From contig JAHKAP010000052.1 of the NCBI GenBank assembly GCA_018825985.1, forward strand, positions 6,373-70,372: a stretch of DNA of 64,000 nucleotides, read 5' to 3'. The notes beneath the pieces were generated by a model that was given only the letters and a program-made list of their open reading frames with translations, ran no database searches and was not told the origin of the DNA. Both the position numbers and the translations under genes were made by a program. Below are positions 25,153 through 50,080 of this stretch, piece by piece; the first letter of the stretch is position 1, and each line of letters opens with the position of its first letter. Source of the stretch: Candidatus Omnitrophota bacterium (GTDB taxonomy: Bacteria; Omnitrophota; Gorgyraeia; Gygaellales; Profunditerraquicolaceae).

Positions 25153-26585
<1,433 letters not shown>

Positions 26586-29750: not shown

Positions 29751-30092
29751 ATGAAATTAGTGATAGCGATAATCCAGCCGGATAAGCTGGAAGAGGTTAA
29801 GGAGGAATTATATAAAGCAGAGATTAATCTTTTAACTGTAAGCGAGGTTCTTGGCCATGGTCGGCAAAAAGGGATTACTGAGGTTTACCGCGGCCATAAG
29901 GAGACTGGCAATCTTTTGAGAAAAGTTCGTTTGGAGATTGCCGTTAATGATCATTTCCTTGAGCCAACAATTAAGGCTATTGTTAGGGGGGCTAAGACCG
30001 GCGAGACAGGAGATGGAAAAATATTTATTCTGGATCTTAAAGAGTGCATCCGCATACGTACAGAAGAACGGGGTTCAACAGCTATAGGTTAA
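29751..30092 (+). CDS. glnK: P-II nitrogen regulatory protein
   Basis: PII fold with T-loop [11 protein letters not shown] and C-terminal GDGKIFI. Adjacent to amt. Confidence 0.85.
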
Positions 30093-30182: not shown

Positions 30183-32372
30183 ATGGGACTAAGACAAAAA
30201 ACATTGTTCAGAATAAAAAATGTGGAGTTGAAAAAGATCGACCATCCTAAAAAAGTATCTTCTTATTTCGGGGAAAACACCTTTAGTTTAGAGACCATGC
30301 AAAAGCATATCTCTAAAACGACATTTGAGGCTTTTAAAGCCTGGATGTCAGAAGGTAAAACTATTAATATTAAACAAGCTGATGAGATTGCCGCAGCGAT
30401 GAAGGATTGGGCAATCTCCAAAGGCGCGACTTATTATACCCATTGGTTTCAGCCGATGACCGGGCTTACCGCTGAAAAGCACGATAGTTTTATTTCAATG
30501 GCTGGTCCGGGAAAGGTCATCGAAAAATTCTCCGGGAATAAATTGATCCAGGGTGAGCCTGATGCCTCGAGTTTTCCTTCGGGAGGGATCAGGGCCACAT
30601 TTGAAGCCAGGGGTTATACTGCCTGGGATCCTTCCAGCCCGGCTTTTATCATTGAGAGCGCGTTAGGTAAGACTTTATGTATACCTACTATTTTTATTTC
30701 TTACCATGGCGAGGCACTGGATAAAAAGCTTCCCTTGTTACGTTCTGATGAGGCCTTAAATAAAGCGGCAACAGGCTTATTAAAAATTTTTGGGCGTAAA
30801 GACGCGCAAAAAGTCTTTTCTACCTGTGGACCGGAACAAGAGTATTTTTTAATCGACCGGAATTATTATAACCTCAGGCAGGATCTGTTATTGACTGGAC
30901 GGACTTTAGTTGGGGCTGCTTCTCCTAAGGGTCAGCAGTTAGAAGACCAGTATTTCGGGACGATCAAGGAACGGGTAGTTAACTTTATGTTTGAGGTAGC
31001 CGAAGAAGCCTATAAGTTGGGTATTCCGGTGATGACCAGACATAATGAAGTTGCTCCGCATCAATATGAATTCGCTCCTATATTTGAGGAGTCAAATTTA
31101 GCTGCGGATCATAACCAGCTTTTAATGGAATTGATGAAAAAGGTGGCGTTAAGGCATAACCTGGTCTGTCTTTTACATGAAAAGCCTTTTGCCGGCATTA
31201 ATGGAAGCGGTAAACATCTGAATTGGTCTTTGGCGGATAACAACGGGAATAACCTGCTTAATCCCGGAGAGACCCCAGAAGATAATCTTCAGTTTTTAGC
31301 AGTATTAGCCGCAGTATTAAGGGCGGTATATCTGCATGGCGATTTATTAAGGGCTAGCGTTGCCTTGGCCGGGAATGAACACCGTTTAGGCGCTAATGAA
31401 GCGCCGCCTGCGATTATCAGTGTTTTCTTAGGGGAACAGTTAACTTCAATTTTGGATATGATTGAAAAAGGGGCAAAATCCAAAGTCTCTAAGCGCGATA
31501 TTATTGATTTAGGGATAGCCCGCCTGCCGAAATTCAATAAAGATTCTACTGACCGCAACCGCACTTCTCCGTTTGCCTTTACCGGAGCCAAGTTTGAGTT
31601 CAGGGCTGTAGGCTCATCTCAGAATATTGCAACCGCGATCGCAATGATCAATACTATCATTGCTGAAAGCCTGGATTATGTCGCTGATAAGGTCAATAAG
31701 GCCAAAGGAAGCGATTTCAGCACTAAAGTAATGCAGGTGATCGCTCAAATCGTAAAGGAGACTAAGGACATCCGTTTTGAAGGCAATAACTACGCTGAGG
31801 AATGGATAAAAGAAGCTAAAAAAAGAGGCCTGCCTAATGTCGCTTCCACAATAGACGCGCTTAAGGCCTTGACCGAAAAGAAGAATATAAATCTTTTTGA
31901 AAGATACAAGGTTTTCTCTAAGGAAGAATTAATCGCCCGGCACCATATCTGGGTTCATATGTATAACCTTACTCTTGAGATCGAAGCTAATACTTTGAAT
32001 GAAATGGTCAATGCCAGTATTGTCCCGGCAGGCTATGAATACGAAAAACTCCTGGCTGGTAACTTGAAAAAAATAGTTGAACTTTTAAAAGAAGCGAAAC
32101 TTAAGCTGGACCCGGCCGTAATCAGTGATCAGAAAGAACATTTAAGCGATGTGGTCAGTAAGATCTATTATGTCCGGCGCAATACCAAGGAATTGGTGAA
32201 GCTTCTGGAAAAAGCCAGGGGTTTGGATAATGACTTGAGGGCGAATCTGTATTTTAAAGAGCTTAAACCTTTGATGGAGCATATCCGTAGGCATGTTGAT
32301 GCTTTGGAATGCGTTGTCCCGGATGAGCTTTGGGAGTTACCGAAATACCGGGAGATGCTTTTTATTAAATAA
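30183..32372 (+). CDS. glnN: Glutamine synthetase type III
   Basis: 729-aa GS with type III architecture. GGGGG RBS. Confidence 0.85.
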   Translation: MGLRQKTLFRIKNVELKKIDHPKKVSSYFGENTFSLETMQKHISKTTFEAFKAWMSEGKTINIKQADEIAAAMKDWAISKGATYYTHWFQPMTGLTAEKHDSFISMAGPGKVIEKFSGNKLIQGEPDASSFPSGGIRATFEARGYTAWDPSSPAFIIESALGKTLCIPTIFISYHGEALDKKLPLLRSDEALNKAATGLLKIFGRKDAQKVFSTCGPEQEYFLIDRNYYNLRQDLLLTGRTLVGAASPKGQQLEDQYFGTIKERVVNFMFEVAEEAYKLGIPVMTRHNEVAPHQYEFAPIFEESNLAADHNQLLMELMKKVALRHNLVCLLHEKPFAGINGSGKHLNWSLADNNGNNLLNPGETPEDNLQFLAVLAAVLRAVYLHGDLLRASVALAGNEHRLGANEAPPAIISVFLGEQLTSILDMIEKGAKSKVSKRDIIDLGIARLPKFNKDSTDRNRTSPFAFTGAKFEFRAVGSSQNIATAIAMINTIIAESLDYVADKVNKAKGSDFSTKVMQVIAQIVKETKDIRFEGNNYAEEWIKEAKKRGLPNVASTIDALKALTEKKNINLFERYKVFSKEELIARHHIWVHMYNLTLEIEANTLNEMVNASIVPAGYEYEKLLAGNLKKIVELLKEAKLKLDPAVISDQKEHLSDVVSKIYYVRRNTKELVKLLEKARGLDNDLRANLYFKELKPLMEHIRRHVDALECVVPDELWELPKYREMLFIK

Positions 32373-32541: not shown

Positions 32542-32919
32542 ATGATCACAATATTGATCACTGAAGACGAATTAAAAGCCAAGGATGCCTTGGCTAAGGC
32601 GCTCTCTCAGGAAGGGTATGCCTTATCCGAAGGTTTTAATGATTCGAATATGATCCGGATAGTAAAAAAAGATTGTATCCGGGATTTGGCTTTTATCAAA
32701 GATAAAGTGATCGAGCTGGAAGACGCTTTAGTCAATGAAAAGAAAGGGTTTTTGTATAAGTCTGTGTTGGAGGCTATTGAAAAACCACTTATTGAACATA
32801 TCCTGGAGCGCACCGAGGGAAATCAGTTAAAGGCAGCCAGGATTCTGGGGATTAACCGTAATACTATGCGCTCTAAAATTAAAAAACTGGGGATTAGCGC
32901 GGCAAAATGGAAGGTTTGA
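32542..32919 (+). CDS. Stand-alone Fis/NtrC-type HTH DNA-binding protein
   Basis: C-terminal 45 aa (EKPLIEHILERTEGNQLKAARILGINRNTMRSKIKKLGI) match the HTH_8 DNA-binding domain of sigma54 activators. No receiver or AAA+ domain. Confidence 0.6.
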   Translation: MITILITEDELKAKDALAKALSQEGYALSEGFNDSNMIRIVKKDCIRDLAFIKDKVIELEDALVNEKKGFLYKSVLEAIEKPLIEHILERTEGNQLKAARILGINRNTMRSKIKKLGISAAKWKV

Positions 32920-35900
32920 TGGAAAAACAAGGGCTTTATGATCCTAAGTTTGAACATGATTCCTGCGGCACCGGGTTTGTTTGCCAGGTCAAGGGAGAGA
33001 GGTCTTTTTCAATTATCCAGCAGGGCCTGGAGGTATTAAGGAGATTGTCTCATCGCGGGGCAACCGGAGCAGACCCCAAAACCGGAGATGGCGCAGGAGT
33101 GCTGATCCAGATGCCGCATGATTTCCTGGTAGATGAATGTTTGAAGTTAGGGATAAATCTTCCCCGCATAGGAGATTATGCCTGCGGTTTAGTTTTTCTG
33201 CCGGTGGAAAAGTTAGAGCGTCAATATTGCAAAGATGCCTTTGCCGAGATAGTCGAGCATGAAGGACAACTTCTTTTAGGCTGGAGAAAAGTTCCGGTAA
33301 ATGATTCAGATATAGGGCATACCGCCAAAAAGACCCAGCCAATGATTGAACAGGTTTTTATCCAAAAAGGCCGGGGTATTTTTAAGGATAACCTCGCCTT
33401 TGAGAGAAAGCTTTATATCATTAGGAAGAGAGTTGAAAATATAATCCGCAGGAAGGGTTTAAGCAAAGATTCATTATTTTATATCACTAATCTTTCTTCT
33501 CGGACATTGTCTTATAAGGGCCTGTTGATGCCCACCCAGGTAAAGGATTATTTTCCCGACCTTAAGAACCCGCTTTTAAAAAGCGCGATCTGTTTAGTCC
33601 ATTCCCGGTATTCCACTAATACTTTTCCTACCTGGGACCTGGCTCAGCCGTTTAGATATTTGGCTCATAACGGAGAGATAAATACTCTGCGGGGGAATAT
33701 TAATTGGATGCAAGCCAGGGAAGGTTTATTGGAAAGCGAGTTATTTGGCTCGGATATAGAAAAACTTAAACCGGTGATCGTTCCCGGCGGAAGCGATTCA
33801 GCCACATTAGACAATGTTTTTGAATTACTTTTCTTAGGAGGCAGGCCTTTAGCCCAGGTAATGATGATGCTTATTCCTTCGGCTTGGGAGCAATCCAAGT
33901 CAATGGATGAGAAATTGCGCAGTTTCTATAAATACCACGCTTGTCTTATGGAGCCCTGGGATGGGCCGGCAGCTATTGTTTTTACTGACGGTATCCGGGT
34001 AGGGGCAGTGTTGGACAGGAATGGCCTGAGGCCCTGCCGTTACATTACTACCCGGGATAACCGGGTAATCATGGCTTCTGAAGTCGGGATTTTAGATATA
34101 CCTCCCCATGATATTCTTTCTTCAGGGAGGATCGAGCCGGGAAAGATATTTTTTATCAATACTGAGGTAGGCAGGATTATTGAAGACCGGGAGCTAAAGG
34201 AGATAACCGCCGGCAAACATCCCTACCGCAGCTGGGTTTTAGAAAACATGCGTAATCTCGAAGACCTGGCTGAAAAAGAAATAGATTCCAAACGGTTGGA
34301 TATTCTCCCACAGTTAAAAGCCTTCGGCTATACCCGAGAGGACATTAAAACCATTATCAAACCGATGATGGAAACGGCTCAAGAGCCGGTGGGTTCAATG
34401 GGAAATGATACTCCTTTAGCTGTTCTTTCCCAAAAACCCCAGATGCTTTACAGTTATTTCAAACAACTCTTTGCTCAGGTAACTAATCCGGCGATCGATC
34501 CTATACGCGAAGAACTGGTAATGTCTTTGTCGACTTATTTAGGCCCGGAAAAGAATATCCTGGAAGAATCTCCGGCAAATTGCCACAAGATATTTATAAA
34601 AGAACCGGTAATTACTAATGAATCCCTGGAAAAGATCCGCAATATCGATTTAAATTCCTTTAAGACTAAGACCGTATCTCTTTTATTCGAAGCATCCGCG
34701 CCTGATAATTTTCTAAAAACCTTAGATAGGATATGCCAGGACGCGTTATCCGCTATAAGGCAGGGTTATACTTTCATAATATTAAGCGACCGGGGGGTAG
34801 ATAAAAAACACGCGGCGATTCCTGCACTTCTAGCCATAGGCGCGGTGCATCATTTTCTGGTGAGAAAATCCCTGCGCACCCGTATCGGCATCGTAGTTGA
34901 AAGCGCTGAGCCTAGGGAAGTGCATCATTTTGCCCTTTTATTCGGATACGGAGCGGATTGCGTTAATCCTTATCTGGCCTTCGAAGCGGTAAAATCAATA
35001 CTTAAAGAAGAATCCGGCAGCCTTAATGATGAAGAATATTTACATAAATATATTAAGGCGGTTAATAAGGGGATTTTAAAGATCCTCTCTAAAATGGGGA
35101 TATCTACTCTACAAAGTTACCGGGGGGCCCAGATATTTGAGGCTCTGGGTTTAGGAAAAGAAGTGATCGAGCAATGTTTTAGCGGGACGGTATCAAGGAT
35201 AGGAGGTATAGGCTTTGATATTATAGTTCAGGAGACCTTGTTAAGGCACGCCCAAGCTTTTGTAAAAGGCCAGCCAGAAACTCCGTATTTATCCTCGGGG
35301 GGGATGTATCAATGGAGAAAAGACGGTGAATTCCACCTTTGGAATCCGGAAACCATCGCTGCTTTGCAAGACGCAGTGCGAACCGGGAATTACCAGAAAT
35401 ATAAAGAATTCAGTAAATTAATAAATGACCAATCTTTAAATCCTACTACCTTGCGTAGCCTCTTGAAATTCAAGGATGGAACTGCCGTAATTGATTTGAA
35501 AGAAGTTGAGCCGCAGGAATTTATTATTAAGCGTTTTGCCACCGGGGCAATGAGTTTCGGCTCGATAAGCGGCGCGGCTCATCGCACCATTGCCCTGGCT
35601 ATGAACCGCCTGGGAGCAAAGTCAAATACCGGAGAAGGGGGAGAAGACCCGGTTCGTTTTATGCCTTTGCCAAACGGTGATAGTTTCCGCAGCGCGATCA
35701 AACAAGTCGCCTCCGGCAGGTTTGGGGTAACTACAAATTATTTGGTTAATGCCGATGAGTTGCAGATCAAGATCTGCCAGGGAGCTAAACCCGGTGAAGG
35801 AGGGCAATTACCCGGGCATAAGGTCAGTTTGATCATTGCCAAGACCCGCTATACTACTCCGGGAGTGACTCTGATCTCTCCTCCTCCGCATCATGATATT

Positions 35901-37433
35901 TATTCTATTGAAGATTTAGCCCAGCTTATATTTGATCTAAAGAATGTTAATCCTAAAGCCAGGATAAGCGTTAAGTTAGTTTCCGAGATTGGCGTAGGTA
36001 CTGTTGCTGCCGGAGTAGCTAAAGGGCATGCGGATATGATCCTGATATCCGGCGGGGACGGTGGAACTGGAGCCTCGCCAATAAGCTCGATCAAACACGC
36101 CGGCCTGCCCTGGGAACTGGGTTTATCCGAGGCCCACCAGACCCTGGTATTAAATGATTTAAGGAGCAGGGTAAGGTTGCAAACCGACGGTCAACTGCGC
36201 ACCGGAAGGGATATCGCTATAGCAGCTTTATTAGGTGCGGAAGAATACGGCTTTGCCACCAGCGTATTGGTTACATTAGGATGCGTTATGTTAAGACATT
36301 GTAATTTAAATAATTGCTCTTTAGGTATAGCTACCCAGGACGAGTTATTAGAGAAAAAATTCTTAGGCCAGGCAGACTATGTGATTAATTATTTTCGTTT
36401 TGTGGTTACCGAGCTTAGAGAGATCATGGCCCATCTTGGCATAAAGACTATTGACGAGATGATCGGCCGCACCGATTTATTGGAGCTCAATAAAAATATA
36501 TTACCCTGGAAAGCTAAGGAATTAGATTTCTCTCGGATACTTTATAAGCCTGATCTCTTTGCGCAAGTCGGCAGGTATAAGATTATTTCTCAGGAGCACG
36601 GCATTGATAAAGTTTTAGATTTAAAATTAATTGAAGCGGTAAAATCAGGATTAGGTAAGGATAATCAGATTAAGCTGGAATTACCGATAAAAAACTCCGA
36701 TCGGGCTGTAGGGGCGATGTTAAGCGGTTATGTGGCTAAAAACTTCGGCGAGGCCGGCCTGGTTGAAAAATCCATTCATTGTAATTTTAAAGGTTATGCC
36801 GGACAGAGTTTCGGCGCTTTTCTTGTTCCCGGGATAACCTTTGAGCTTGAAGGTATGGCTAATGATTATGTTGGTAAAGGTATATCCGGAGGCCGGATCA
36901 TAATCTATCCGGATAAAGAGGTAACTTACAGCGCCCGGGAGAATATCATTATTGGCAATACCGCATTTTACGGAAGCGTAAACGGTGAGGCCTATATCCG
37001 CGGCCGCTCAGGAGAAAGATTTGCGATCCGCAATTCCGGGCTCTATGCGGTTGTGGAAGGCGTGGGAGACCATGGTTGCGAGTATATGACCGGAGGAAGG
37101 GTTGTGGTTTTAGGAAGGACCGGCAAGAATTTTGCCGCTGGTATGGCCGGAGGCATTGCCTATGTATATAACCGGGAAGGAAATTTTAAATACCGTTGTA
37201 ACTATGATATGGTGGGTTTAGAAAAACTTAATCCGGACGACATAGAAACGGTTAAAAAATTAATTCTTAATCATTACAAATATACCCAGAGTTTACTGGC
37301 CAAGAGAATAATGGACAATTTTTCTTCCGAGATACGGGATTTTGTCAAGGTTATACCTTTTGAGTATAAGCGTATCTTAGAAGAAAAGAAACCGGCTAAA
37401 AATAATAATTTAGACGAAGTATCAGATGGGTAA
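32907..37433 (+). CDS. gltB: Glutamate synthase large subunit
   Basis: N-terminal amidotransferase Cys (HDSCGTGFV), FMN and 3Fe-4S domains, C-terminal GXGXG domain. 1508 aa. Start may instead be the ATG at 32919. Confidence 0.9.
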   Translation: MEGLMEKQGLYDPKFEHDSCGTGFVCQVKGERSFSIIQQGLEVLRRLSHRGATGADPKTGDGAGVLIQMPHDFLVDECLKLGINLPRIGDYACGLVFLPVEKLERQYCKDAFAEIVEHEGQLLLGWRKVPVNDSDIGHTAKKTQPMIEQVFIQKGRGIFKDNLAFERKLYIIRKRVENIIRRKGLSKDSLFYITNLSSRTLSYKGLLMPTQVKDYFPDLKNPLLKSAICLVHSRYSTNTFPTWDLAQPFRYLAHNGEINTLRGNINWMQAREGLLESELFGSDIEKLKPVIVPGGSDSATLDNVFELLFLGGRPLAQVMMMLIPSAWEQSKSMDEKLRSFYKYHACLMEPWDGPAAIVFTDGIRVGAVLDRNGLRPCRYITTRDNRVIMASEVGILDIPPHDILSSGRIEPGKIFFINTEVGRIIEDRELKEITAGKHPYRSWVLENMRNLEDLAEKEIDSKRLDILPQLKAFGYTREDIKTIIKPMMETAQEPVGSMGNDTPLAVLSQKPQMLYSYFKQLFAQVTNPAIDPIREELVMSLSTYLGPEKNILEESPANCHKIFIKEPVITNESLEKIRNIDLNSFKTKTVSLLFEASAPDNFLKTLDRICQDALSAIRQGYTFIILSDRGVDKKHAAIPALLAIGAVHHFLVRKSLRTRIGIVVESAEPREVHHFALLFGYGADCVNPYLAFEAVKSILKEESGSLNDEEYLHKYIKAVNKGILKILSKMGISTLQSYRGAQIFEALGLGKEVIEQCFSGTVSRIGGIGFDIIVQETLLRHAQAFVKGQPETPYLSSGGMYQWRKDGEFHLWNPETIAALQDAVRTGNYQKYKEFSKLINDQSLNPTTLRSLLKFKDGTAVIDLKEVEPQEFIIKRFATGAMSFGSISGAAHRTIALAMNRLGAKSNTGEGGEDPVRFMPLPNGDSFRSAIKQVASGRFGVTTNYLVNADELQIKICQGAKPGEGGQLPGHKVSLIIAKTRYTTPGVTLISPPPHHDIYSIEDLAQLIFDLKNVNPKARISVKLVSEIGVGTVAAGVAKGHADMILISGGDGGTGASPISSIKHAGLPWELGLSEAHQTLVLNDLRSRVRLQTDGQLRTGRDIAIAALLGAEEYGFATSVLVTLGCVMLRHCNLNNCSLGIATQDELLEKKFLGQADYVINYFRFVVTELREIMAHLGIKTIDEMIGRTDLLELNKNILPWKAKELDFSRILYKPDLFAQVGRYKIISQEHGIDKVLDLKLIEAVKSGLGKDNQIKLELPIKNSDRAVGAMLSGYVAKNFGEAGLVEKSIHCNFKGYAGQSFGAFLVPGITFELEGMANDYVGKGISGGRIIIYPDKEVTYSARENIIIGNTAFYGSVNGEAYIRGRSGERFAIRNSGLYAVVEGVGDHGCEYMTGGRVVVLGRTGKNFAAGMAGGIAYVYNREGNFKYRCNYDMVGLEKLNPDDIETVKKLILNHYKYTQSLLAKRIMDNFSSEIRDFVKVIPFEYKRILEEKKPAKNNNLDEVSDG

Positions 37434-37445
37434 AGCGGAGTTATT

Positions 37446-38891
37446 ATGGGTGATCCTAAAGGTTTCTTAAAGGTTAAAAGAGAGCATCCGGCATACCGTC
37501 CGGTATGCGAACGGGTCCGGGATTATAAGCAGGTATCTGCTTTAAGGAGCGACTCCAAATCTATGGAACAGGCCTCGCGTTGCATGGACTGCGGCACTCC
37601 CTTCTGCCATTGGGCCTGTCCGATAGGTAATTACATACCGGAATGGAATGATCTGGTATTTCATAACCGTTGGGAAGAAGCGATAAGTCTGCTCATGGCG
37701 ACAAATAATCTTCCGGAAGTTACCGGCAGGGTCTGCCCGGCGCTGTGCGAATACTCCTGTGTTTTAGGTATTAATGATGATCCGGTCACTATAAGAGAGA
37801 ATGAATTTTCGGTTATCGAGCATGCTTTTAAGGAAGGAATAATCATTCCTATCCTGCCTAAGAATAGGACCGGTAAAACTGTAGCGATAGTAGGTTCAGG
37901 GCCGTCAGGCCTGGCTTGCGCTGATCAATTGAATCAAGCCGGGCATAGGGTGATAGTTTTTGAAAAGGATGATTCAATAGGTGGGATATTGCGCTTTGGC
38001 ATACCGGATTTTAAATTAGAGAAAAAGGTAATCGATCGCAGGTTGAATATTTTAAAGGCTGAAGGAATAGAGTTTCGGACTAAAATAAATGTAGGCCTTG
38101 ATTATCCGGCTAAAAAATTATTAGAAGATTTTGACGCAGTCTGCCTGGCCGGCGGAAGCAGGGTTGCCCGGGATTTGAAGATTCCTGGGCGGGATTTAAA
38201 AGGTATTTATTTTGCCATGGATTATTTAACCCAGTCAAACCGCAGGGGCAGAGGAGAGAATATTCCCGACAATCTCCTTATAGACGCCAATAATAAATCA
38301 GTAGTAGTGATCGGCGGCGGTGATACCGGTTCGGATTGCGTGGGTACTGCTAATCGCCAGCAGGCTAAATGTGTAGTCCAGATAGAAGTATTACCTAAGC
38401 CTTCCGAGTGCCGGACTCCCGACCACGCTTGGCCTAAATACCCGGTTATTTTAAAAACTTCAACCAGCCATGAAGAAGGAGGGCTTAGGCATTGGGCGGT
38501 TTTGTCTAAAGAATTTATTGGAGATAATGGCAAGGTGAGTAGAATTTCTTGTGTAAACGCGGACTTCTCTGAAAAAGATAGCCAGGGATGCGGGATCATG
38601 AAAGAAGTGGCTGGTTCGGGTTTTGAGGTTCCGGCGGATTTAGTTATTATTGCGGCAGGTTTTCTGCACCCTGAGCATAACGGGTTGATCAAGGATTTGA
38701 ATCTGGACATGGATAACCGGGGAAATGTTTTAACCGGCCAAGATTATGCTACTTTAGTAAAAAAAGTTTTTGCAGCCGGAGATATACGCCGGGGCCAGTC
38801 TTTAGTAGTCTGGGCTATTTCTGAAGGCAGACAGGCAGCGTTTAACATTGATAAATATCTTATGGGTTATACCAACCTGCCTATGCTCTAA
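37446..38891 (+). CDS. gltD: Glutamate synthase small subunit (NADPH)
   Basis: GltD family: N-terminal Fe-S Cys clusters, FAD (IVGSGPSGL) and NADPH ([11 protein letters not shown]) Rossmann motifs. Confidence 0.9.
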
Positions 38892-38927
38892 ACCAGTTCC
38901 ACCTTTGCAGGTGGATAGGGGGGTTTT

Positions 38928-41495
38928 ATGGTAAGCACCGGGTTAAAAGGCCTGGATAAAGTAATCAACTCCTTACGCTTAGGCGATAATGTAGTCTGGC
39001 AGATCGATAGTATTGATGATTACGCTGATTTTGTCCGGCCTTTTGTTAAATCCGCCCTGGAAGAAAAACGCAGGCTGGTTTACATCCGCTTTGCCCATCA
39101 CAAACCTCTTTTGCCGGATAAAAAAGAAATTACAGTCTATAAGCTTGACGCCTTCAGCGGCTTTGAATCTTTTTCCACCCAGTTAAATAGCATCATTACC
39201 AAAGAAGGTAAAGAGGTTTTTTACGTTTTTGACTGCCTCTCTGATCTTCTTTCTGCCTGGTCCAACGACCTGATGATCGGGAATTTCTTCAAGATCACCT
39301 GTCCCTACCTTTTTGAGCTGGATACTATCGCTTATTTTTCATTATTACGCAACAGCCATTCTTTTAAAACCGTGGCCCGTATCCGCGAGATCACCCAGCT
39401 TTTGGTCAATGTCTATAACTTTGAAGGAAACTATTATGTTCATCCTTTAAAGGTCTGGAACCGTTATTCACCGACCATGTTCCTGCCGCACTTAAAGAAA
39501 CAGGAGCGGTTTGTTCCTATTGGAAATAGCGTGGATACTGCCCGGCTTTTTTCCAACATAATCAAAAAAGGGGCAAAAAGCACCAAAAGAAACCTGGATT
39601 ACTGGGACAGGTTGTTTTTAAAAGTCGAGGATTTAACCGGCCAGAGCGGAACGGCCGAGGAAAAGTCTAAAATGTTAGAGCATTTATGCCGGATGATCAT
39701 TGCCCGGGATGAGAAATTCTTCCGTCTGGCCAAAGAAAACCTTTCTTTGGAAGATTTTTTAGCTATAAAGACCAGGATGGTGGGGACAGGTTTTATCGGA
39801 GGCAAGTCCGTAGGCATGCTTATTGCCAGGAGCATCCTTTTGAAAGAAAAAGATTTAAAAGCTGAGGAGTTCTTTGAGCCCCATGATTCTTTCTACATCG
39901 GCTCGGACGTGTTCTATACCTATATAGTGGAGAACGGTTGGTGGAAAGCCAGGATGGATCAGAGGACTAAAGACGGGTATTTTAAGGTAGCTAATATATT
40001 GAAAGAGCAGATGCTTTCCGGGGTGTTCCCTGAAGAGATTAAAGAGCAGTTCAAGCAGATGATCGATTATTTTGGCCAATCTCCGATCATTGTGCGCTCC
40101 TCAAGCCTTTTAGAAGATAGTTTCGGCAACGCCTTTGCCGGAAAATACGAAAGCATTTTTTTAGTTAACCAGGGGACTCCGGATGAACGCTATGCCAGAT
40201 TTTCCGAGGCAGTGAGACGGATCTATGCCTCGACCATGAATGAAGACGCATTAGCGTATCGGCTGCAAAGAGGCTTAGATCAACAAGATGAACAAATGGC
40301 TTTATTGGTCCAGAGGGTATCGGGTGCATATCATAAGGATTATTTTTTTCCTGACGCAGCCGGAGTCGGGATCTCTTATAATACTTTTGTTTGGAAAAAA
40401 GATCTGGACCCTGAGGCTGGGATGCTCAGGATAGTTTTAGGCTTAGGCACCCGGGCAGTTAACCGGGTAGAGGGTGATTATCCGCGGATAGTAGCTTTGG
40501 ATCAACCTCTGCTTAAGGCTCATTCCGGCCTGGAAGACGCTCAAAAGTTTTCCCAGCATGACATCGATCTATTGAATATCCGGGAAAACAAGCTACAGAC
40601 CCGGACATTAAGAGAGTTGTTGAATGAAAAAGTAGAGATAAAGCTGGATTTGTTGGCAGTAAGGGATTATGAGGCTTCTGAGAGGATGCGCCAGATGGGT
40701 AAGGATGAAGAATCCTGGATCATTAATTTCGATACCCTATTTACAAAAACAGATTTTAGAGAGACTTTGCAAAAAATCCTGAAGATCCTGCAGGCTCATT
40801 ACGGCTATCCTGTAGATATAGAATTTACGGTTAATTTTGACAAACACGATAAATTTAAGATAAATCTTTTACAATGCCGGACTATCCAGGGTAGGGGTTT
40901 GGGAAAAAGGGTAGAAATACCTGAGAAAATAGAAAAAGAAAGAATACTTTTCGAATCCCAGGGTAATTTTCTAGGAGGAAATTTTTCCCATCTGATCCGC
41001 AGGGTGATCTATGTTGATCCGCAAGGTTATTCGCAGCTGCCGGTAACAGGAAAATATGATATTGCTAGAGCGGTGGGAGAATTAAACCGGCAGATAAAGG
41101 ATAAGGAAGAATTTCCGGTTATTTTATTAGGTCCGGGAAGATGGGGGACTACTACTCCTTCTTTAGGCGTCCCGGTTTCTTTTGCCGAGATAAATAATAT
41201 ATCCGTATTGGCAGAGGTGTCTTTTGCCAGCGCTAATTGCATCCCGGAGCTTTCTTTCGGCACCCATTTCTTCCAGGACCTGATTGAAACCGGGATTTTT
41301 TATGTAGCTTTATTTGTGGATAATAAAGAAGCATTTTTAAATACTGAGATGATCGGTTCCTGGCCGAATTCCTTGACTAAATTCGCCCAGTCTTATGCTA
41401 AATACAGCCCGGTGATCAAGGTTTATGATCTGGATAAAAAAGAACTGCGCATTGTCTCGGATATTATCTCTCAAAAAGTAGTTTGTTTTCACTGA
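38928..41495 (+). CDS. Fusion protein: degenerate KaiC/RecA-like N-terminal domain + PEP-utilising-enzyme N-terminal (PPDK_N ATP-grasp) domain
   Basis: C-terminal ~600 aa carry PPDK_N motifs (GGKSVGM, VRSSSLLEDSFGNAFAGKYES, MALLVQRV, GLGTRAV) but no phospho-His or PEP/pyruvate domains. N-terminal ~230 aa is KaiC-like (GLDKVINSLRLGDNVV) without a Walker A. Confidence 0.55.
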   Translation: MVSTGLKGLDKVINSLRLGDNVVWQIDSIDDYADFVRPFVKSALEEKRRLVYIRFAHHKPLLPDKKEITVYKLDAFSGFESFSTQLNSIITKEGKEVFYVFDCLSDLLSAWSNDLMIGNFFKITCPYLFELDTIAYFSLLRNSHSFKTVARIREITQLLVNVYNFEGNYYVHPLKVWNRYSPTMFLPHLKKQERFVPIGNSVDTARLFSNIIKKGAKSTKRNLDYWDRLFLKVEDLTGQSGTAEEKSKMLEHLCRMIIARDEKFFRLAKENLSLEDFLAIKTRMVGTGFIGGKSVGMLIARSILLKEKDLKAEEFFEPHDSFYIGSDVFYTYIVENGWWKARMDQRTKDGYFKVANILKEQMLSGVFPEEIKEQFKQMIDYFGQSPIIVRSSSLLEDSFGNAFAGKYESIFLVNQGTPDERYARFSEAVRRIYASTMNEDALAYRLQRGLDQQDEQMALLVQRVSGAYHKDYFFPDAAGVGISYNTFVWKKDLDPEAGMLRIVLGLGTRAVNRVEGDYPRIVALDQPLLKAHSGLEDAQKFSQHDIDLLNIRENKLQTRTLRELLNEKVEIKLDLLAVRDYEASERMRQMGKDEESWIINFDTLFTKTDFRETLQKILKILQAHYGYPVDIEFTVNFDKHDKFKINLLQCRTIQGRGLGKRVEIPEKIEKERILFESQGNFLGGNFSHLIRRVIYVDPQGYSQLPVTGKYDIARAVGELNRQIKDKEEFPVILLGPGRWGTTTPSLGVPVSFAEINNISVLAEVSFASANCIPELSFGTHFFQDLIETGIFYVALFVDNKEAFLNTEMIGSWPNSLTKFAQSYAKYSPVIKVYDLDKKELRIVSDIISQKVVCFH

Positions 41496-43224
<1,729 letters not shown>

Positions 43225-43310: not shown

Positions 43311-44396
43311 ATGGATGCTATATTAGCCTTAGAAGACGGCAGAATATTCAAAGGCAAGTCTTTTGGCGCCTCAGGCGAAAGAAGCGGTGAGGTGGTTTTT
43401 AATACCAGTATGTCCGGATACCAGGAGATCATTACTGATCCTTCCTATAAGGGCCAGATCGTAGCGATGACTTATCCCCTGATCGGAAATTACGGGGTAA
43501 ATAAAGAAGATGTAGAATCATTTAAACCTTTTGTTGAAGGTTTTGTGGTCAAGGAATATTCTAAGATTGCCAGTAATTGGCGCTCCCATACTACATTGGG
43601 AGAATATCTGAAAGAAAATAATATTTTAGGTATTGAAGGTATAGATACCCGGGCCCTGACTTTACATATAAGGCGAGCCGGAGCAATGAAAGCGGTTTTA
43701 TCAACCAAGGACCTGGATCAGGAGAGCTTGGTTGAAAAAGCCAAGAATTCTCTGGGGCTTGAGGGTGTAGATTTAGTAAAAGAAGTAACTTGTAAGAAAA
43801 GATACATCTGGTCAAAAGCAAATAAGGCCGGATGTAAAATTACAGTGATTGACTGCGGAGTAAAATACAATATATTAAGGGAGCTTTTAAAATACGGATG
43901 TCAGGTTAGTATAGTTCCGGCATTTACAACTGCCGAAGAGATACTTAAAGATAAGCCGGATGGAGTTTTACTTTCTAATGGCCCGGGAGACCCGGCAGCA
44001 GTTACTTATGTGGTAGAGACAGTCAGAAAACTGATCGGTAAAGTTCCTATTTTTGGGATATGTTTGGGGCAGCAAATGATAGGTTTGGCTTTAGGCGGCA
44101 AGACCTATAAGCTTAAATTCGGGCATCACGGCGGCAACCAGCCGGTTAAGGATCTAAAAACCGGGAAAGTTTCTATTACTTGCCAGAATCACGGGTTCTG
44201 TGTGGATATTGGTTCTTTACCTAAAAAAGATATTGAGATAACCCATAAGAACTTAAATGACCAGACCCTGGAGGGTATCCGGCATAAAAGATTTCCCTTA
44301 TTTTCCGTGCAGTTTCATCCTGAATCTTCTCCCGGCCCCCATGACGCGGAATATTTATTCAAGAATTTCATAGATATGGTTAAAAAACATGCCTAA
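43311..44396 (+). CDS. carA: Carbamoyl-phosphate synthase small (glutaminase) subunit
   Basis: CarA GATase signature (GICLGQQ, His/Glu of triad) and N-terminal CPSase small-chain domain. Confidence 0.9.
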
Positions 44397-46050
44397 ACGT
44401 AAAGACATAAAAAAAATTATGATCATCGGCTCAGGCCCGATTGTCATCGGCCAGGCCTGCGAATTTGATTATTCCGGGTCTCAGGCCTGCAAGGTTTTAA
44501 GGCAGGAAGGATACCAGGTAGTTTTGGTTAATTCTAACCCGGCTACTATTATGACTGATCCGGAGATGGCGGACAGCACTTATATCGAGCCGATTACTCC
44601 GGATATAGTTGAGAAAATAATTGCTTTGGAAAGGCCGGATGCCCTGCTTCCTACTTTAGGCGGGCAGACTGCTTTAAATACCACTGTTATTCTGGCTGAA
44701 AGAGGTGTATTAAAAAAATATAAAGTTGAAACTATCGGAGCAAATATCAAAGCGATTAAAAAAGCTGAAGATAGAAAGTTATTCAAAGAGGCGATGCTCA
44801 AGATCGGCTTGGACCTGCCTAAAAGCGGAAGAGCTTATAATTTAAAAGAAGCCTTAGAAGTTGCTGGAGAAATCGGGTTTCCTTTGATCATCCGGCCCAG
44901 TTTTACTTTAGGCGGCACCGGCGGAAGCCTGGCTTATAATATCGAAGAGTTTAAGGGTCTGGCTAAACATGGCCTGGAATCGAGCATGATCAGCGAGATC
45001 CTGATTGAAGAATCTATAGTTGGTTGGAAAGAATATGAATTAGAGGTAATGCGGGATTTAAAGGATAATGTGGTGATTATCTGTTCTATCGAGAATTTTG
45101 ATCCGATGGGAGTGCATACCGGCGATAGCATTACTGTTGCCCCTATCCAGACTTTAACTGATCGGGAATATCAGAAGATGCGCGATAGCGCTATTGCCTG
45201 TATCCGGGAGATTGGGGTTGAAACCGGAGGTTCTAATATTCAATTCGGCGTGCATCCTCAAACCGGAAGACAGGTAGTTATTGAAATGAATCCCCGGGTT
45301 TCCCGAAGTTCAGCTTTAGCCTCCAAGGCCACGGGTTTTCCTATCGCTAAAATTGCCGCCAAGTTAGCTGTAGGTTATACCTTAGATGAGATAGCTAATG
45401 ATATTACCAAAGAGACTCCGGCTTGTTTTGAGCCGGCAATAGATTATTGTGTAGTAAAAATTCCCAGGTTTACTTTTGAGAAATTCCGCGGAGCGAATTG
45501 CGAACTTACTGTTTCCATGAAATCAGTTGGCGAGGCGATGTCTATCGGGAGGACTTTTAAAGAGGCTTTGCAAAAAGGCATTCGTTCCCTGGAGATAAAA
45601 AAATACGGTTTAGACAGCATGATTTTTGCGGATCTGTCACGGATAAATCCTAACCCTAATGATCTGGATATAATCGACCAAAAATTAAGGATGCCTAACG
45701 CCGAAAGGTTATTTTACCTGGCTGATGCTTTACGCTGCGGCATGGATATTGAGAAGATCTATGAAATGACTAAGATCGACCGCTGGTTTATTTATAATAT
45801 TAAAGAGATCATTGATATGGAGAAAGAAATTATAAAGAATAAAGGCAATCTCGATAAAGAACTTTTGATTTCCGCCAAACAATACGGATTTAGCGATAAG
45901 CAGCTATCCAAGCTTACCAATAAGGCCGAGGAAGATATTTATAAACTCCGCAAGTCGTTCAATATCTCTCCAGATTTTAAATTAGTGGACACCTGCGCCG
46001 CCGAGTTCCAGGCCCACACCCCCTATTTTTATTCTACCTACGACAAATAG
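44389..46050 (+). CDS. carB: Carbamoyl-phosphate synthase large subunit, N-terminal half only (carboxyphosphate ATP-grasp + oligomerisation domains)
   Basis: 553 aa ending at ...[20 protein letters not shown]. This is the inter-half linker of canonical ~1070-aa CarB. 8-nt overlap with carA. Confidence 0.8.
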
Positions 46051-46203: not shown

Positions 46204-47115
46204 TTGATGAAAAAAATACTGGCTTTGTTACTATTCGCGTTTATTTTTTCCGGATGTGCCACCTATAAATACCAGCATGGTAATAAACCTTATGATCAAG
46301 GATACGTGATAACCCGGAATAACCAGTTTGTCATGGAATATACCCTGGGTGAGAATAATACTGTTCCAGATAAAGAGTTAGCTAAAGAGAGGTTTAAAAG
46401 GCGCAGAAAAGCCGTTGAGATTTTTTATAAAAGAATGGGTTATATCGAAAGTTATTATAGGTTGTATTTCTGGAATCATGTATCAACGATGGCTGATGCC
46501 ATCGGAGGTTTTTTCCGTATGCCCGGTGTCGCTATTTCCGAATACAGGTATGCCCATAATCCAAAATACAGGGAAAAGATTATAAAACTTGAGGATGAGC
46601 GGGAAGCTAAAGAAGAAACCAGGGTAAATAAAATCAAAGATGAATTAAGGGAGTATGTTAAAAAAGACTTAGAAAGAGAAAAAGGTTTTCCTGACAAAGA
46701 AACAAAACCTAGAGTTAAAGCTTTAGTTAAGAAAGTCAAGCCTGCGGTTTCAACTGGTCCTATCGTAGAGAAAAAAGCCGGACCAAGGGCTGGCAGGATC
46801 AAGCCCGAAACTATTAAGGCCCAGAGTGAGGTTGCACCAGAGCTGCCGGTTGCAGTGATAATCGCCAAGCCTGAGAAAGGGTACGCACCTTTAATGGTTA
46901 ATTTCTCGGGTAAAAAGTCATATTCTCCAAAGGCCAGGATAGTTTCTTATTCCTGGGATTTTGGCGATTCAGATACTTCCAATAAACCAACAGCTGTTAA
47001 TACTTACTGGAGCGGTTCTTTTGAGACTCGCTATTTTAATGTTATTTTAACTGTTAAAGATTCCAACGGCAATACTGCTCAGGCAAATACTACTATCGAG
47101 GTTAAGAATAAATAA
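46204..47115 (+). CDS. Lipoprotein with C-terminal PKD domain
   Basis: Lipobox FSGCA. Lys/Glu-rich linker. PKD-like C-terminus (WDFGDS...TVKDSNGNTA). Confidence 0.6.
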   Translation: MMKKILALLLFAFIFSGCATYKYQHGNKPYDQGYVITRNNQFVMEYTLGENNTVPDKELAKERFKRRRKAVEIFYKRMGYIESYYRLYFWNHVSTMADAIGGFFRMPGVAISEYRYAHNPKYREKIIKLEDEREAKEETRVNKIKDELREYVKKDLEREKGFPDKETKPRVKALVKKVKPAVSTGPIVEKKAGPRAGRIKPETIKAQSEVAPELPVAVIIAKPEKGYAPLMVNFSGKKSYSPKARIVSYSWDFGDSDTSNKPTAVNTYWSGSFETRYFNVILTVKDSNGNTAQANTTIEVKNK

Positions 47116-47132: not shown

Positions 47133-48662
47133 GTGATGTTAAATAAAAACGGTTTTGACAATGAAAAATACTTAAAAGAACAAACTGCAGCAATCCTTAA
47201 CCGGGTTAGAAAATTCGATAACAAGCTTTACCTGGAATTCGGGGGGAAACTTTGTTTTGATTATCATGCGGCCCGCGTCCTTCCCGGGTATGACCCCAAT
47301 GTTAAAATAAGGCTTTTGCAGTCTTTAAAAGATAAGGTTGATATTGTCCTGTGTATTTACGCAGGGGATATTGAAAAGGGGAGGGTGCGCGGTGATTTCG
47401 GGATAACTTATGATGCAGCAACGTTTAAATTAATCGATGATTTAAGAAAATGGGGCCTGGATATATTATCAGTGGTAATTACCCGGTTTGCGAATCAACC
47501 CTTAAGCGTTATTTTTAAGAATAAATTGGAACGCCGGGGAGTCAAGGTAAACCTGCATTATCCGATAGAAGGCTATTCCACTAATTTTGATTTTGTAGTC
47601 AGCGAAAACGGTTTTGGGAAAAATGATTATATTGAAACTAAAAATCCGATTGTGATAATTACCGGGCCCGGGCCTAATAGCGGTAAGTTATCCACCTGTC
47701 TCTCCCAGTTATATCACGAACATAAAAGAGGGATTAACGCCGGTTACGCCAAATTTGAGACTTTTCCTATTTGGAATATACCTTTAAAACATCCGGTAAA
47801 TGTGGCTTATGAGGCAGCTACCGCCGATATCCTGGATTTTAACCTGGTTGATCCTTTTCACCTTGAGAAATACCAGGAGGCAGCCATAAATTACAACCGG
47901 GATGTAGAGAGTTTTCCTATTTTAAAGTTGATCCTGAACAAGATCCTGGATAAAAAAGCCGATATGCCGATGTATAATTCTCCAACAGATATGGGCGTTA
48001 ACCGCGCTGGCTTTGGGATTGTGGATGATAAAATAGTCCAGGAAGCGGCTAAACAGGAATTAATTCGGCGTTATTTCAGGTATAACGGTGAATACTTGTT
48101 AGGGGTTGAGAAGAAAGAGACCGTAGACCGGGCAAATTTATTAATGGAGGAATTAGGGATAAAAGTTACGGATCGGATAGTAGTAGAACCGGCCAGAAAG
48201 ACCGCTGAAGAGGCAGAGAGCAAGGGTAAAGGCAACGATGGTATCTATTGCGGCGCCGCTATTCAGTTGAGCGATGGAAGGATTATAACCGGGAGAAATT
48301 CTCATCTTATGCACGCGGCCTCCAGTCTGGTTTTGAACTCGGTTAAGGTTTTAGCGAATATACCTGATGAAATCCTGCTTTTATCCCCTCATATTATCAA
48401 CCAGATATCCAAATTAAAAGAAGGTATCTTAGGTAATGAGTCGGAGAGCCTGGACCTGGAAGAGGCTTTGATTGCCCTTTCTATCAGCGCTACCACTAAC
48501 CATACCGCAGAGGTGGCTATGAATAAGCTAAAGGAATTAAGGGGATGCGAAGTGCATATGACCCATATTCCCACCCCAGGCGATGAAGTGGGGCTTAAGA
48601 GATTGGGTGTTAATTTAACTACTGACGGCAAATTCTCTTCCCGCAACCTCTTCGTTACTTAA
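47133..48662 (+). CDS. DUF1846 (UPF0371) family protein
   Basis: About 500-aa protein with conserved DUF1846 N-terminal region (FDNEKYLKEQ...LYLEFGGKL) and overall collinearity with that family. Confidence 0.6.
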   Translation: MMLNKNGFDNEKYLKEQTAAILNRVRKFDNKLYLEFGGKLCFDYHAARVLPGYDPNVKIRLLQSLKDKVDIVLCIYAGDIEKGRVRGDFGITYDAATFKLIDDLRKWGLDILSVVITRFANQPLSVIFKNKLERRGVKVNLHYPIEGYSTNFDFVVSENGFGKNDYIETKNPIVIITGPGPNSGKLSTCLSQLYHEHKRGINAGYAKFETFPIWNIPLKHPVNVAYEAATADILDFNLVDPFHLEKYQEAAINYNRDVESFPILKLILNKILDKKADMPMYNSPTDMGVNRAGFGIVDDKIVQEAAKQELIRRYFRYNGEYLLGVEKKETVDRANLLMEELGIKVTDRIVVEPARKTAEEAESKGKGNDGIYCGAAIQLSDGRIITGRNSHLMHAASSLVLNSVKVLANIPDEILLLSPHIINQISKLKEGILGNESESLDLEEALIALSISATTNHTAEVAMNKLKELRGCEVHMTHIPTPGDEVGLKRLGVNLTTDGKFSSRNLFVT

Positions 48663-48685: not shown

Positions 48686-50080
48686 ATGCCGGTAAAGATT
48701 AAATTCTTAGGCGGAGTAAGGACAGTCACTGGTTCCAGTCATCTTATCTCAACCGATAAATCCGAAATACTCCTGGATGCCGGTCTGTTTCAGGGCCACC
48801 GCAATGATTTCTATGATATCAATACTACCTTTAGCTATAATCCCCGTAAGCTCAATGCCATGCTTTTATCCCATGCCCATATCGACCATAGCGGGAATAT
48901 CCCCAGCCTTTTGAAAAAAGGGATGCGCTGTAAGATATATACTACCGCTGCAACCCGTGATCTATGTAAATTAATGCTCGAAGATTCCGGAAAGATCCAG
49001 GAAGAAGATATCCGCTACGTGAATAAGATCAACCGCAGGTTGGGCCTTCCTTTGAGAAAAGCTCTTTATAACAGGAAAGAGGCCCGCCACGCTGCCAAGA
49101 GGTTTCATCCGGTCCCTTATAGTCAGAAGACCTGCGTGGCCAATAATGTTTTCGCTACTTTTTATGATGCCGGCCATATCCTGGGTTCTTCGATCATAGT
49201 CTTAGATATCAAGGATGGAGTTCAAAGTATCCGTTTAGGTTATGCCGTAGATTTAGGCAGAAGAAACCTGCCGCTCTTAAATGATCCCTTTATTCCTACG
49301 GGCCTGGATTATCTTATTATAGAGAGTACTTACGGAGGAAGGGTGCGGCCGCCTATAGAAGAAGCCAAGATCAAGCTTAAAGAGGTTATTCTGCGCACGA
49401 TCGAGCGCAAAGGAAAGATCCTGATCCCGGCTTTTACCTTGGAACGGACCCAGGAAGTGGTTTATTTTTTAAGTGAGCTCTTTAAAGATAAATCTCTTCC
49501 TTTTATTCCGGTTTATGTCGACAGCCCATTAGCCACGGATATAACCGATGTATTTAAATACCATCTGGATTACCTTAATCAAGAGACCCGCCAACATATA
49601 TCCCAGGGCCAGAGCCCTTTTGAATTTTTGAATTTAAGTTATATCCGCGACCAGAAAGAATCCAAAACCCTGAATAATGACCGCCGGCCGATGATAATCA
49701 TTGCCGGGTGCGGGATGTGTGAGTCCGGCAGGATCGTTCATCACATTAAGAATAATATTGAGGATTCCCGCAATACTATACTGGTGGTTGGCTATATGGC
49801 CAAGAATACCTTAGGCAAACGGATCGTGGAAAAGACCCCTTTTGTGCGTATTTTCGGTATTGAATATCAGTTAAATGCCGAGGTGGTAGTTATCAATTCG
49901 TTCTCCGGGCACGCGGACAAAAATGAACTGACGGATTTTATAACTCAATCCCTGCCTTTAAAAAGGATATTCTTGGTCCACGGAGACATGGAGCAGACCC
50001 AGCCGTTATTCGAAAATCTCTCTCAGATATGCCAGAATGTTTACATCCCGGCTAAAGACGAAGAAGTCTTGCTTGAGTAA
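48686..50080 (+). CDS. MBL-fold beta-CASP ribonuclease (RNA-metabolising metallo-beta-lactamase)
   Basis: HxHxDH motif (HAHIDHSG), beta-CASP motifs and C-terminal RMMBL-like region. Confidence 0.7.
   Translation: MPVKIKFLGGVRTVTGSSHLISTDKSEILLDAGLFQGHRNDFYDINTTFSYNPRKLNAMLLSHAHIDHSGNIPSLLKKGMRCKIYTTAATRDLCKLMLEDSGKIQEEDIRYVNKINRRLGLPLRKALYNRKEARHAAKRFHPVPYSQKTCVANNVFATFYDAGHILGSSIIVLDIKDGVQSIRLGYAVDLGRRNLPLLNDPFIPTGLDYLIIESTYGGRVRPPIEEAKIKLKEVILRTIERKGKILIPAFTLERTQEVVYFLSELFKDKSLPFIPVYVDSPLATDITDVFKYHLDYLNQETRQHISQGQSPFEFLNLSYIRDQKESKTLNNDRRPMIIIAGCGMCESGRIVHHIKNNIEDSRNTILVVGYMAKNTLGKRIVEKTPFVRIFGIEYQLNAEVVVINSFSGHADKNELTDFITQSLPLKRIFLVHGDMEQTQPLFENLSQICQNVYIPAKDEEVLLE

Follow-up and report, generated by a model that had tools for sequence, protein, structure and literature searches.

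Among the described systems closest to the protein considered here, a ping-pong histidine mechanism has been described for rifampin phosphotransferase (RPH; PMC4844700) and for phenylphosphate synthase and AcvAB (10.1101/2022.04.28.489975), and VadK (Rv1127c), a truncated pyruvate phosphate dikinase (PPDK), autophosphorylates on His422 and regulates metabolic enzymes (bioRxiv 10.1101/2025.10.30.685616). The present analysis concerns a gene, hereafter called X together with its protein, located at 38928..41495 on the forward strand of a 64,000-nucleotide stretch of Candidatus Omnitrophota DNA (the window; contig JAHKAP010000052.1, positions 6,373 to 70,372). X represents a large, unnamed family, a new architectural variant of the enzyme class that comprises phosphoenolpyruvate (PEP) synthase, PPDK and RPH, in which an ATP-grasp domain is combined with an N-terminal domain and a family-specific C-terminal one, and which is repeatedly encoded beside genes of ammonium assimilation. 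It is tentatively read, with a likelihood slightly short of even, as a histidine-mediated dikinase-type phosphotransferase at the glutamate branch of ammonium assimilation, probably with a regulatory role.

X is an intact open reading frame (ORF) of 855 aa with an ATG start, and the gene is considered real and intact because its product is a 100% match to NCBI MBU1929733.1, a "PEP/pyruvate-binding domain-containing protein" from metagenome-assembled genomes of Candidatus Omnitrophota. An earlier sequence-only reading of the window had placed an 855-aa frame here between gltD and pyrG, and both the coordinates and the Pfam identities of the neighbours agree with it. An AlphaFold2 (AF2) model built from a 70-sequence family alignment (pLDDT 89.8, pTM 0.87) divides the protein into three domains and a linker, as follows:

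38928..39527, + strand: N-terminal domain (aa 1-200), predicted RecA/KaiC-like alpha/beta core without a P-loop
39528..39794, + strand: predicted helical linker (aa 201-289, DSSP of the AF2 model) between the KaiC-like and ATP-grasp domains
39795..40934, + strand: PPDK_N ATP-grasp domain (aa 290-669), with the motifs GGK293, VR390SSSLLED397, D630-I-E632-FT and Q649-C-R651
40935..41492, + strand: family-specific C-terminal domain (C-domain, aa 670-855), predicted swivelling beta/beta/alpha-like core, with GPGRWGT (736-742) and PELSFGTH780FFQDL
41265..41267, + strand: CAT codon of His780, candidate phospho-acceptor

The central domain is, judged from its sequence, a bona fide ATP-grasp domain of the PEP synthase type. 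PF01326 (PPDK_N) is the sole Pfam domain in X (E 9.1e-54, profile positions 4-325 of 328), and the alignment of X to residues 42-347 of E. coli PpsA by hhalign has a probability of 98%; in the 70 sequences GGK293, R390-SS, E396-D397, D630xE632 and Q649xR651 are invariant or nearly so, and we take these nucleotide and Mg motifs to be the counterparts of K22, R92, D321, E323 and Q335 of PPDK. The complete PPDK_N domain of the sequence-only reading, with its family assignment, thus held in the profile search, although it had been described as the C-terminal domain of the protein while it is in fact central and is followed by a conserved 186-aa domain that had been overlooked.

The same residues bear on the possibility that X is a nucleotide-sensing or ATP-hydrolysing switch without a phosphohistidine relay, in which the ATP-grasp domain reads ATP/AMP, while the C-domain and the N-terminal domain are interaction or oligomerisation modules for nitrogen-assimilation proteins. 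Such a switch would fit a C-domain whose homology to phosphohistidine carriers is unproven, but it is decidedly unlikely, in that all the catalytic-type residues of the ATP-grasp domain are conserved family-wide and a pure sensor would not need them, and in that the invariant histidine, GPGR and E763 of the C-domain are poorly explained by scaffolding alone. Both phosphotransfer and an ATP-binding switch had been put forward from the sequence; both are possible, and phosphotransfer is the better supported of the two.

Outside the ATP-grasp domain, the features of the ordinary dikinases are missing. The PEP/pyruvate TIM domain (PF02896) has no Pfam match in X at E <= 1, the protein ending at aa 855, and the phosphohistidine swivel domain PEP-utilizers (PF00391, motif GG-x-T/S-S/C-H) has no Pfam match in X either. 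NCBIfam yields only sub-threshold scores, 16-64 bits for the PEP synthase models against cut-offs of 456-1700, and 22-44 bits for rph, PigC and RedH against cut-offs of 999-1700, all of them to the ATP-grasp part. That X is an ordinary PEP synthase or PPDK, or else that its nitrogen-related neighbourhood is coincidental, is scarcely credible: some databases name such proteins phosphoenolpyruvate synthase or pyruvate,water dikinase, but both domains and adequate scores are lacking and no TIM-domain partner gene recurs in the 82 neighbourhoods described below. Since the TIM domain is absent, as the sequence-only reading had also noted, X cannot be a canonical PEP synthase or PPDK, and this candidate is excluded; a split enzyme completed by a TIM-domain partner was likewise rejected, no such partner recurring nearby.

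PPDK_N belongs to the ATP-grasp superfamily, most members of which act through an acyl-phosphate. X could accordingly be conceived as a direct ATP-grasp kinase or ligase acting on a carboxylate, for instance on glutamate, which the neighbouring glutamate dehydrogenase (GDH) and glutamate synthase (GOGAT) produce, with an acyl-phosphate and no histidine intermediate. This is very improbable, because both sequence and structure are specifically PPDK_N/RPH-like and not ligase-like, neither a signature nor a partner of an amine ligase was detected, and the invariance of His780 would be left unexplained.

The C-domain is among the best conserved parts of X. G737, R738, G747, E763, G778 and H780 are invariant in the 70 sequences, down to about 30% identity, and the conserved motifs read GPGRWGT and PELSxGTHFFQDLVE; His780 is the only invariant histidine, kept in 70/70 sequences and in 25/25 C-domains. 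In the AF2 model it is the first residue (N-cap) of helix 780-787, within a layout that comprises strand 731-736, a coil, strand 760-765, a loop, His780 with its helix, a glycine and strand 791-796, and the modelled core falls in the swivel-domain fold class. In sequence layout, the succession strand-loop-helix-Gly-strand with a histidine at the N-cap resembles the place of the catalytic histidine in E. coli PpsA, PtsI, PtsP, PtsA and FryA. Structural matches of the C-domain include RPH 5hv1 (5.3) and Enzyme I 2wqd (5.0), 5woy (4.9) and 5t12 (4.7), as well as a DRTGG domain and chaperonin apical domains; Foldseek against the PDB returned none that was significant (nothing below E 0.02, TM <= 0.3), and the C-domain alone had no Pfam match at E <= 10. 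Judged from the model, the C-domain represents a new domain type, swivel-like in its core, for which a role as phosphohistidine carrier is plausible. The statement of the sequence-only reading that X has no phosphohistidine swivel domain is therefore true at the Pfam level, where PF00391 is missing, and may not hold at the level of structure; the absence of a phosphocarrier, which it took as its premise, is doubtful because the invariant histidine at a helix N-cap resembles the phosphohistidine domains of the dikinase class.

The N-terminal domain is predicted to have a RecA-like alpha/beta core, and its structural matches include KaiC 9ofh_A (20.3, 197 residues aligned) and 8dba_A (19.8), PH0284 (18.7), SSO2452 (18.7) and FlaH (18.4), followed by the degenerate relatives Elp4 (17.1) and BcsE (16.5). 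In the model the P-loop is deleted, strand 21-26 (NVVWQI) leading directly into helix 29-45, and the Walker A pattern GxxxxGK[ST] is absent from X (GDNVVWQIDSIDDY) and was found in 0/51 diverse N-domains and 0/165 full-length relatives, in agreement with the proposal of a KaiC-like domain lacking Walker A. A Walker-B-like Asp102 at the end of the central strand is at least 90% conserved, as are D10, D20, N21, E80, S105, D114, H144 and R179. The likeness to KaiC is visible at the level of modelled structure only: for aa 1-289 there is no Pfam match at E <= 10, including KaiC/ATPase (PF06745 or similar), a PDB sequence-profile search with the full family gave no match, and a search with the N-domain alone recovered only fragments of the X family and no other architecture. 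The linker that joins this P-loop-less (pseudo-KaiC) domain to the ATP-grasp domain is modelled as helices 201-216, 225-240, 243-258, 262-271 and 274-282.

The genomic association was established on 80 loci from one-genome-per-species contigs, with 44-70% identity to X, in which ORFs were called, neighbours clustered and their identities confirmed by Pfam; 82 loci were counted. The sample covers Omnitrophota, Planctomycetota, Desulfobacterota/Syntrophia, Bacillota, Actinomycetota, Gammaproteobacteria, Acidobacteriota, Spirochaetota, Elusimicrobia and Methanoregula. A core nitrogen-assimilation gene, defined as GDH, GltB/D, Amt, glutamine synthetase (GS) or NrpR, lies within four genes of X in 52/82 loci and is a direct neighbour in 43/82, and the link is seen in at least nine phyla (Omnitrophota, Planctomycetota, Desulfobacterota, Bacillota, Actinomycetota, Gammaproteobacteria, Acidobacteriota, Spirochaetota and Methanoregula). 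The decay with distance serves as an internal control: the share of core nitrogen genes is 30% at position 1, 19% at position 2, 8-9% at positions 3-4 and about 3% beyond 5. Coincidence would have to produce 52/82 such loci, and with a background as high as 10% the binomial tail for this is still below 1e-30.

Glutamate dehydrogenase is a neighbour in 31 loci, GltD in 11, Amt in 10, GltB in nine, NrpR in seven, carA in six, carB and pyrG in five each, GS type I and GS type III in four each and purF in two; GDH is adjacent to and co-directional with X in 17 loci, with gaps of 4-234 nt. The partner varies by lineage, being gltD in Omnitrophota, gdh in most others and amt or GS in some Firmicutes, Spirochaetes and Methanoregula, which argues for repeated selection of the nitrogen linkage rather than a single inherited gene order. 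Of the nitrogen- or nucleotide-linked role suggested by the sequence-only reading, the nitrogen part is borne out, and a mainly nucleotide-related one is not, pyrG and carAB accompanying X in only 5-6 loci each and a hairpin preceding pyrG in the window.

NrpR is best known from methanogens; bacterial homologues, with a winged helix-turn-helix and NRD1_2 (PF01995), adjoin X and gdh in seven loci of Syntrophia and Syntrophorhabdus, and these genes are often convergent with X, their 3' ends overlapping (-14 to -43 nt). Other readings of the neighbourhood were discarded. One recurrent-neighbour cluster (c16) was an artefact of antisense high-GC ORFs; a carbohydrate role of the glucan dikinase type, suggested by Geobacter sp. 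OR-1, in which X lies between an alpha-amylase-family gene and pgi, was not repeated in two other loci with fused forms; and a defence-system role was rejected. PADLOC defence models gave no match.

The family is large, with 869 clusters at 50% identity in an exhaustive HMMER scan (E <= 1e-30) and at least 8,000 clusters at 90% identity in a word-indexed search. It has no curated family model, and no study was found of the family, of its domain combination or of a link to GDH or NrpR. The conserved unit is a core made of PPDK_N and the C-domain (aa ~250-855), which occurs alone (~520-650 aa), behind the pseudo-KaiC domain (~855 aa, the commonest form), behind other N-terminal regions, or with a C-terminal Pol-beta/MNT-type nucleotidyltransferase (NTase; P0188, P0232 and P0238), a domain that is not present in X itself. 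The NTase is of the minimal MNT/Pol-beta type, its best NCBIfam hint being MntA with 23 bits against a cut-off of 60. In five Planctomycetes loci a separate 520-aa core-only gene lies directly 5' of X, and Geobacter-type proteins of 1,460-1,490 aa have a duplicated core, in the order core, pseudo-KaiC, core; in Geobacter and Geoanaerobacter the core-only and X units are fused into one protein (P0003-P0011; for example locus L001, 10001-14419). The fused form, together with the adjacent genes of Planctomycetes, suggests that the core-only paralogue and X act as a complex.

In a subfamily only 28% identical to X, overlapping genes encode GDH, a 973-aa core protein and the 1,077-aa core-NTase protein P0232 (locus L099, 2780-10234); there the 973-aa protein has an unrelated 416-aa N-terminus and a gltD-like pair lies downstream of the operon. 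A 778-aa variant with a different N-terminus of ~160 aa (P0216; locus L098, 5170-9337) has an unrelated, non-nitrogen context, just 3' of genes for a STAS anti-anti-sigma factor and a HATPase_c_2 anti-sigma kinase, which is a partner-switching context.

From these elements we infer a mechanism in which MgATP would be bound by the central ATP-grasp domain, His780 on the swivel-like C-domain would be phosphorylated or pyrophosphorylated in the manner of PEP synthase, PPDK, RPH and VadK, AMP and Pi being released, and the phosphohistidine domain would then hand the phosphoryl group to an acceptor held by, or part of, the pseudo-KaiC domain, which may also oligomerise X. The acceptor would most likely be a protein of the glutamate node, the result being control of the flux through GDH or GOGAT analogous to that exerted by VadK on the methylcitrate cycle. 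A protein of this node is proposed because in many phyla X has remained a neighbour of gdh, gltBD, amt, glnA and nrpR; a protein acceptor in general is favoured because some distant relatives add an NTase of a protein-modifying type, because VadK couples autophosphorylation on histidine to the regulation of metabolic enzymes, and because no metabolic step of the glutamate node needs a new phosphorylated intermediate.

The latter argument is directed at the possibility that X is a metabolic enzyme, a small-molecule dikinase that transfers phosphate from ATP through His780 to a metabolite in the polar pocket of the KaiC-like domain; the candidate would be related to glutamate, glutamine or 2-oxoglutarate, and the models would be RPH, phenylphosphate synthase, AcvAB and CreHI. 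The conserved polar cluster of the N-domain (D10, D20, N21, E80, D102, S105, D114, H144, R179) suggests a ligand site, and X often lies 3' of a gene for a glutamate-producing enzyme in the same operon. This reading is possible, though on the unlikely side: we know of no glutamate-node pathway that requires such an intermediate, the recurrent neighbours are standard assimilation genes and regulators, none of them able to use a phosphorylated product, and the MNT-type NTase domains fused to some relatives are typically protein-modifying.

Several results weigh against the histidine-mediated, regulatory phosphotransferase proposed here. No phosphoryl acceptor for X was identified. The equivalence of His780 with the catalytic histidine of the swivel domains is modelled on the order of secondary-structure elements only: Pfam on 25 C-domains gave no PEP-utilizers match, a PDB profile search with the C-domain gave no match, and hhalign returned a probability of 0.1% for the C-domain profile against E. 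coli PpsA and of 0.5%, for a spurious 6-residue match only, against five E. coli swivel domains. In addition, nitrogen genes are missing from the surroundings of X in 30/82 loci, the fused Geobacter-type forms lie in unrelated contexts, and the gene neighbourhood does not separate a regulator from an enzyme or from a merely co-regulated gene.

X is embedded in a co-directional island (25248-46050, + strand) that comprises gdh, a sigma/LuxR-like gene, a Gcw_chp porin-like gene, amt, PII, GS type III, a Fis-type helix-turn-helix (HTH) gene, gltB, gltD, X, pyrG, carA and the N-terminal half of carB; the nitrogen-assimilation part of the island ends with X. The identities below are from Pfam unless otherwise stated:

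25248-26585, + strand: GDH
28456-29685, + strand: Amt
29751-30092, + strand: PII (GlnK-like), identity read from the sequence
30183-32372, + strand: GS type III
32542-32919, + strand: small Fis-type HTH protein, identity from the sequence (HTH_8 label from the homologue in locus L003)
32907-37433, + strand: gltB
37446-38891, + strand: gltD, directly 5' of X
38914..38924, + strand: ribosome-binding site of X, GGATAGGGGGG, read from the sequence
41563..41607, + strand: terminator-like element in the X-pyrG gap, a hairpin GGCGTTTAGTCGCCGG...CCGGCGCTAAAACGCC (41563-41598) and then TATTTTTAT
41611-43224, + strand: pyrG, 3' of X
43311-44396, + strand: carA
44389-46050, + strand: N-terminal half of carB, 553 aa (CPSase_L_D1, D2, D3)

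The ATG of X lies 36 nt past the gltD stop, no terminator-like site is predicted in the gltD-X gap, and gltB and gltD probably share a transcript with X; the order gltB-gltD-X recurs in six loci. One of these is L003, on an Omnitrophota contig 71% identical, in which the island has a near-identical order. The RNA fold of the hairpin between X and pyrG has an energy of -34.4 kcal/mol (z -4.6, equalled by 0/200 shuffles), and for this reason X is most likely the last gene of a transcription unit gltB-gltD-X, separate from that of pyrG and carAB. Generic promoter and terminator scans of the window stayed at background level, the sigma-54 promoter pattern was not enriched in the window (43 matches against 37 expected), and Rfam, searched over the whole window, gave no match near X.

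In Omnitrophota a gene for a Fis-type HTH_8 protein of 125-145 aa (in L003, 1534-1971) is a conserved element of the interval from GS type III to gltB, and the one in the window is a candidate local regulator of gltB-gltD-X. The Gcw_chp-family gene, of an outer-membrane porin-like type, lies directly 5' of amt (27647-28435, + strand) and a gene of this family also adjoins amt and X in three Planctomycetes loci (cluster c39); it may encode an ammonium-related porin. The second half of carB is not adjacent to the first, a PKD-domain protein (46204-47115) coming next; carB of L003 has the same 553-aa form, and some related loci have two adjacent carB-like genes. Downstream of the island, a 509-aa protein with both DUF1846 domains (47133-48662, + strand, E 6e-158) is followed by a beta-CASP RNase gene (48686-50080). 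Elsewhere in the window, a cyclic di-GMP-I riboswitch (RF01051; 15424-15581, + strand, 41 bits against a gathering score of 35, E 1.4e-4) lies upstream of an ORF at 15698-16921, which precedes a gene for a cyclic nucleotide-binding patatin-like phospholipase (16918-18927).

For most anaerobes, Planctomycetes, Omnitrophota and methanogens little is known of the control of GDH and glutamate synthase, which is well understood in only a few model bacteria. Being a large family without a curated model, which in nine or more phyla adjoins gdh, gltBD, amt, glnA or nrpR, X offers a concrete and cheaply tested candidate for a regulator or enzyme still missing where carbon and nitrogen metabolism meet, and its broad association with gdh and gltBD makes the family a good experimental target. 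The further step, that the family provides a widespread post-translational control of GDH and/or GOGAT, in which phosphohistidine on the new swivel domain would modify a target protein docked on the pseudo-KaiC platform, in some lineages together with an NTase, is unlikely as a whole; if true, it would be the counterpart of GlnE/GlnD or PknG-GarA in many anaerobic bacteria and some archaea. The PEP synthase/PPDK class would gain a carrier domain unrecognisable by sequence and a P-loop-less KaiC-like domain as substrate or assembly module. The analysis also corrects a common misannotation as phosphoenolpyruvate synthase.

In comparison with PpsA and PPDK, X has a homologous ATP-grasp domain with the catalytic motifs kept, and the same order, in which the ATP-grasp domain is directly followed by a small domain, predicted in X to be swivel-like. 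E. coli PpsA, in a stretch that starts with DVLVTD, and X, in GTHFFQDLIETG, share (T/S)-H at the helix N-cap, Glu at +7 and Gly at +9. In contrast, X lacks the TIM domain, a swivel domain is not detectable in it by sequence, it carries the extra pseudo-KaiC domain, and its scores with the NCBIfam PEP synthase/PPDK models are far below the cut-offs.

RPH, phenylphosphate synthase, AcvAB, CreHI and HpeHI combine ATP-binding, substrate-binding and small carrier domains, on one or two polypeptides, in a three-part logic that X would share, and RPH and the related small-molecule dikinases share with X the absence of the PEP/pyruvate TIM barrel. However, RPH has a recognisable PF00391 histidine domain, to which the C-domain of X has no sequence similarity, and, behind its ATP-grasp domain, an inserted RIF-binding domain, whereas in X the place of the substrate domain is taken by the unrelated N-terminal pseudo-KaiC domain; moreover, the context of X is nitrogen assimilation and that of the RPH group is antibiotic resistance or aromatic catabolism. 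VadK, which is PPDK-derived and has no PEP/pyruvate domain, as X, would be the best functional analogy for a regulatory X; it differs in its size (~50 kDa, against the 855 aa of X), in its canonical histidine domain, in the lack of a KaiC-like domain and in its distribution and target, being limited to mycobacteria and relatives and to the methylcitrate cycle, while X occurs in many phyla and is associated with GDH and GOGAT.

With KaiC, PH0284, SSO2452, FlaH/ArlH and the degenerate Elp4/5/6 and BcsE, X shares the Walker-B-like D102 at the end of the central strand; with respect to the KaiC-like ATPases, its P-loop is deleted, Walker A is missing family-wide, no Pfam KaiC/ATPase model matches and the domain is fused to a dikinase module. 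Finally, GlnE and GlnD modify GS and PII, and PknG-GarA acts on GDH, GOGAT and 2-oxoglutarate dehydrogenase (ODH) in Actinobacteria. X is unrelated to GlnE, GlnD and PknG in both sequence and domains; the likeness would be one of analogy, these systems being encoded with, or acting on, enzymes like those around X, and the NTase of some X relatives representing the chemistry used by GlnE and GlnD.

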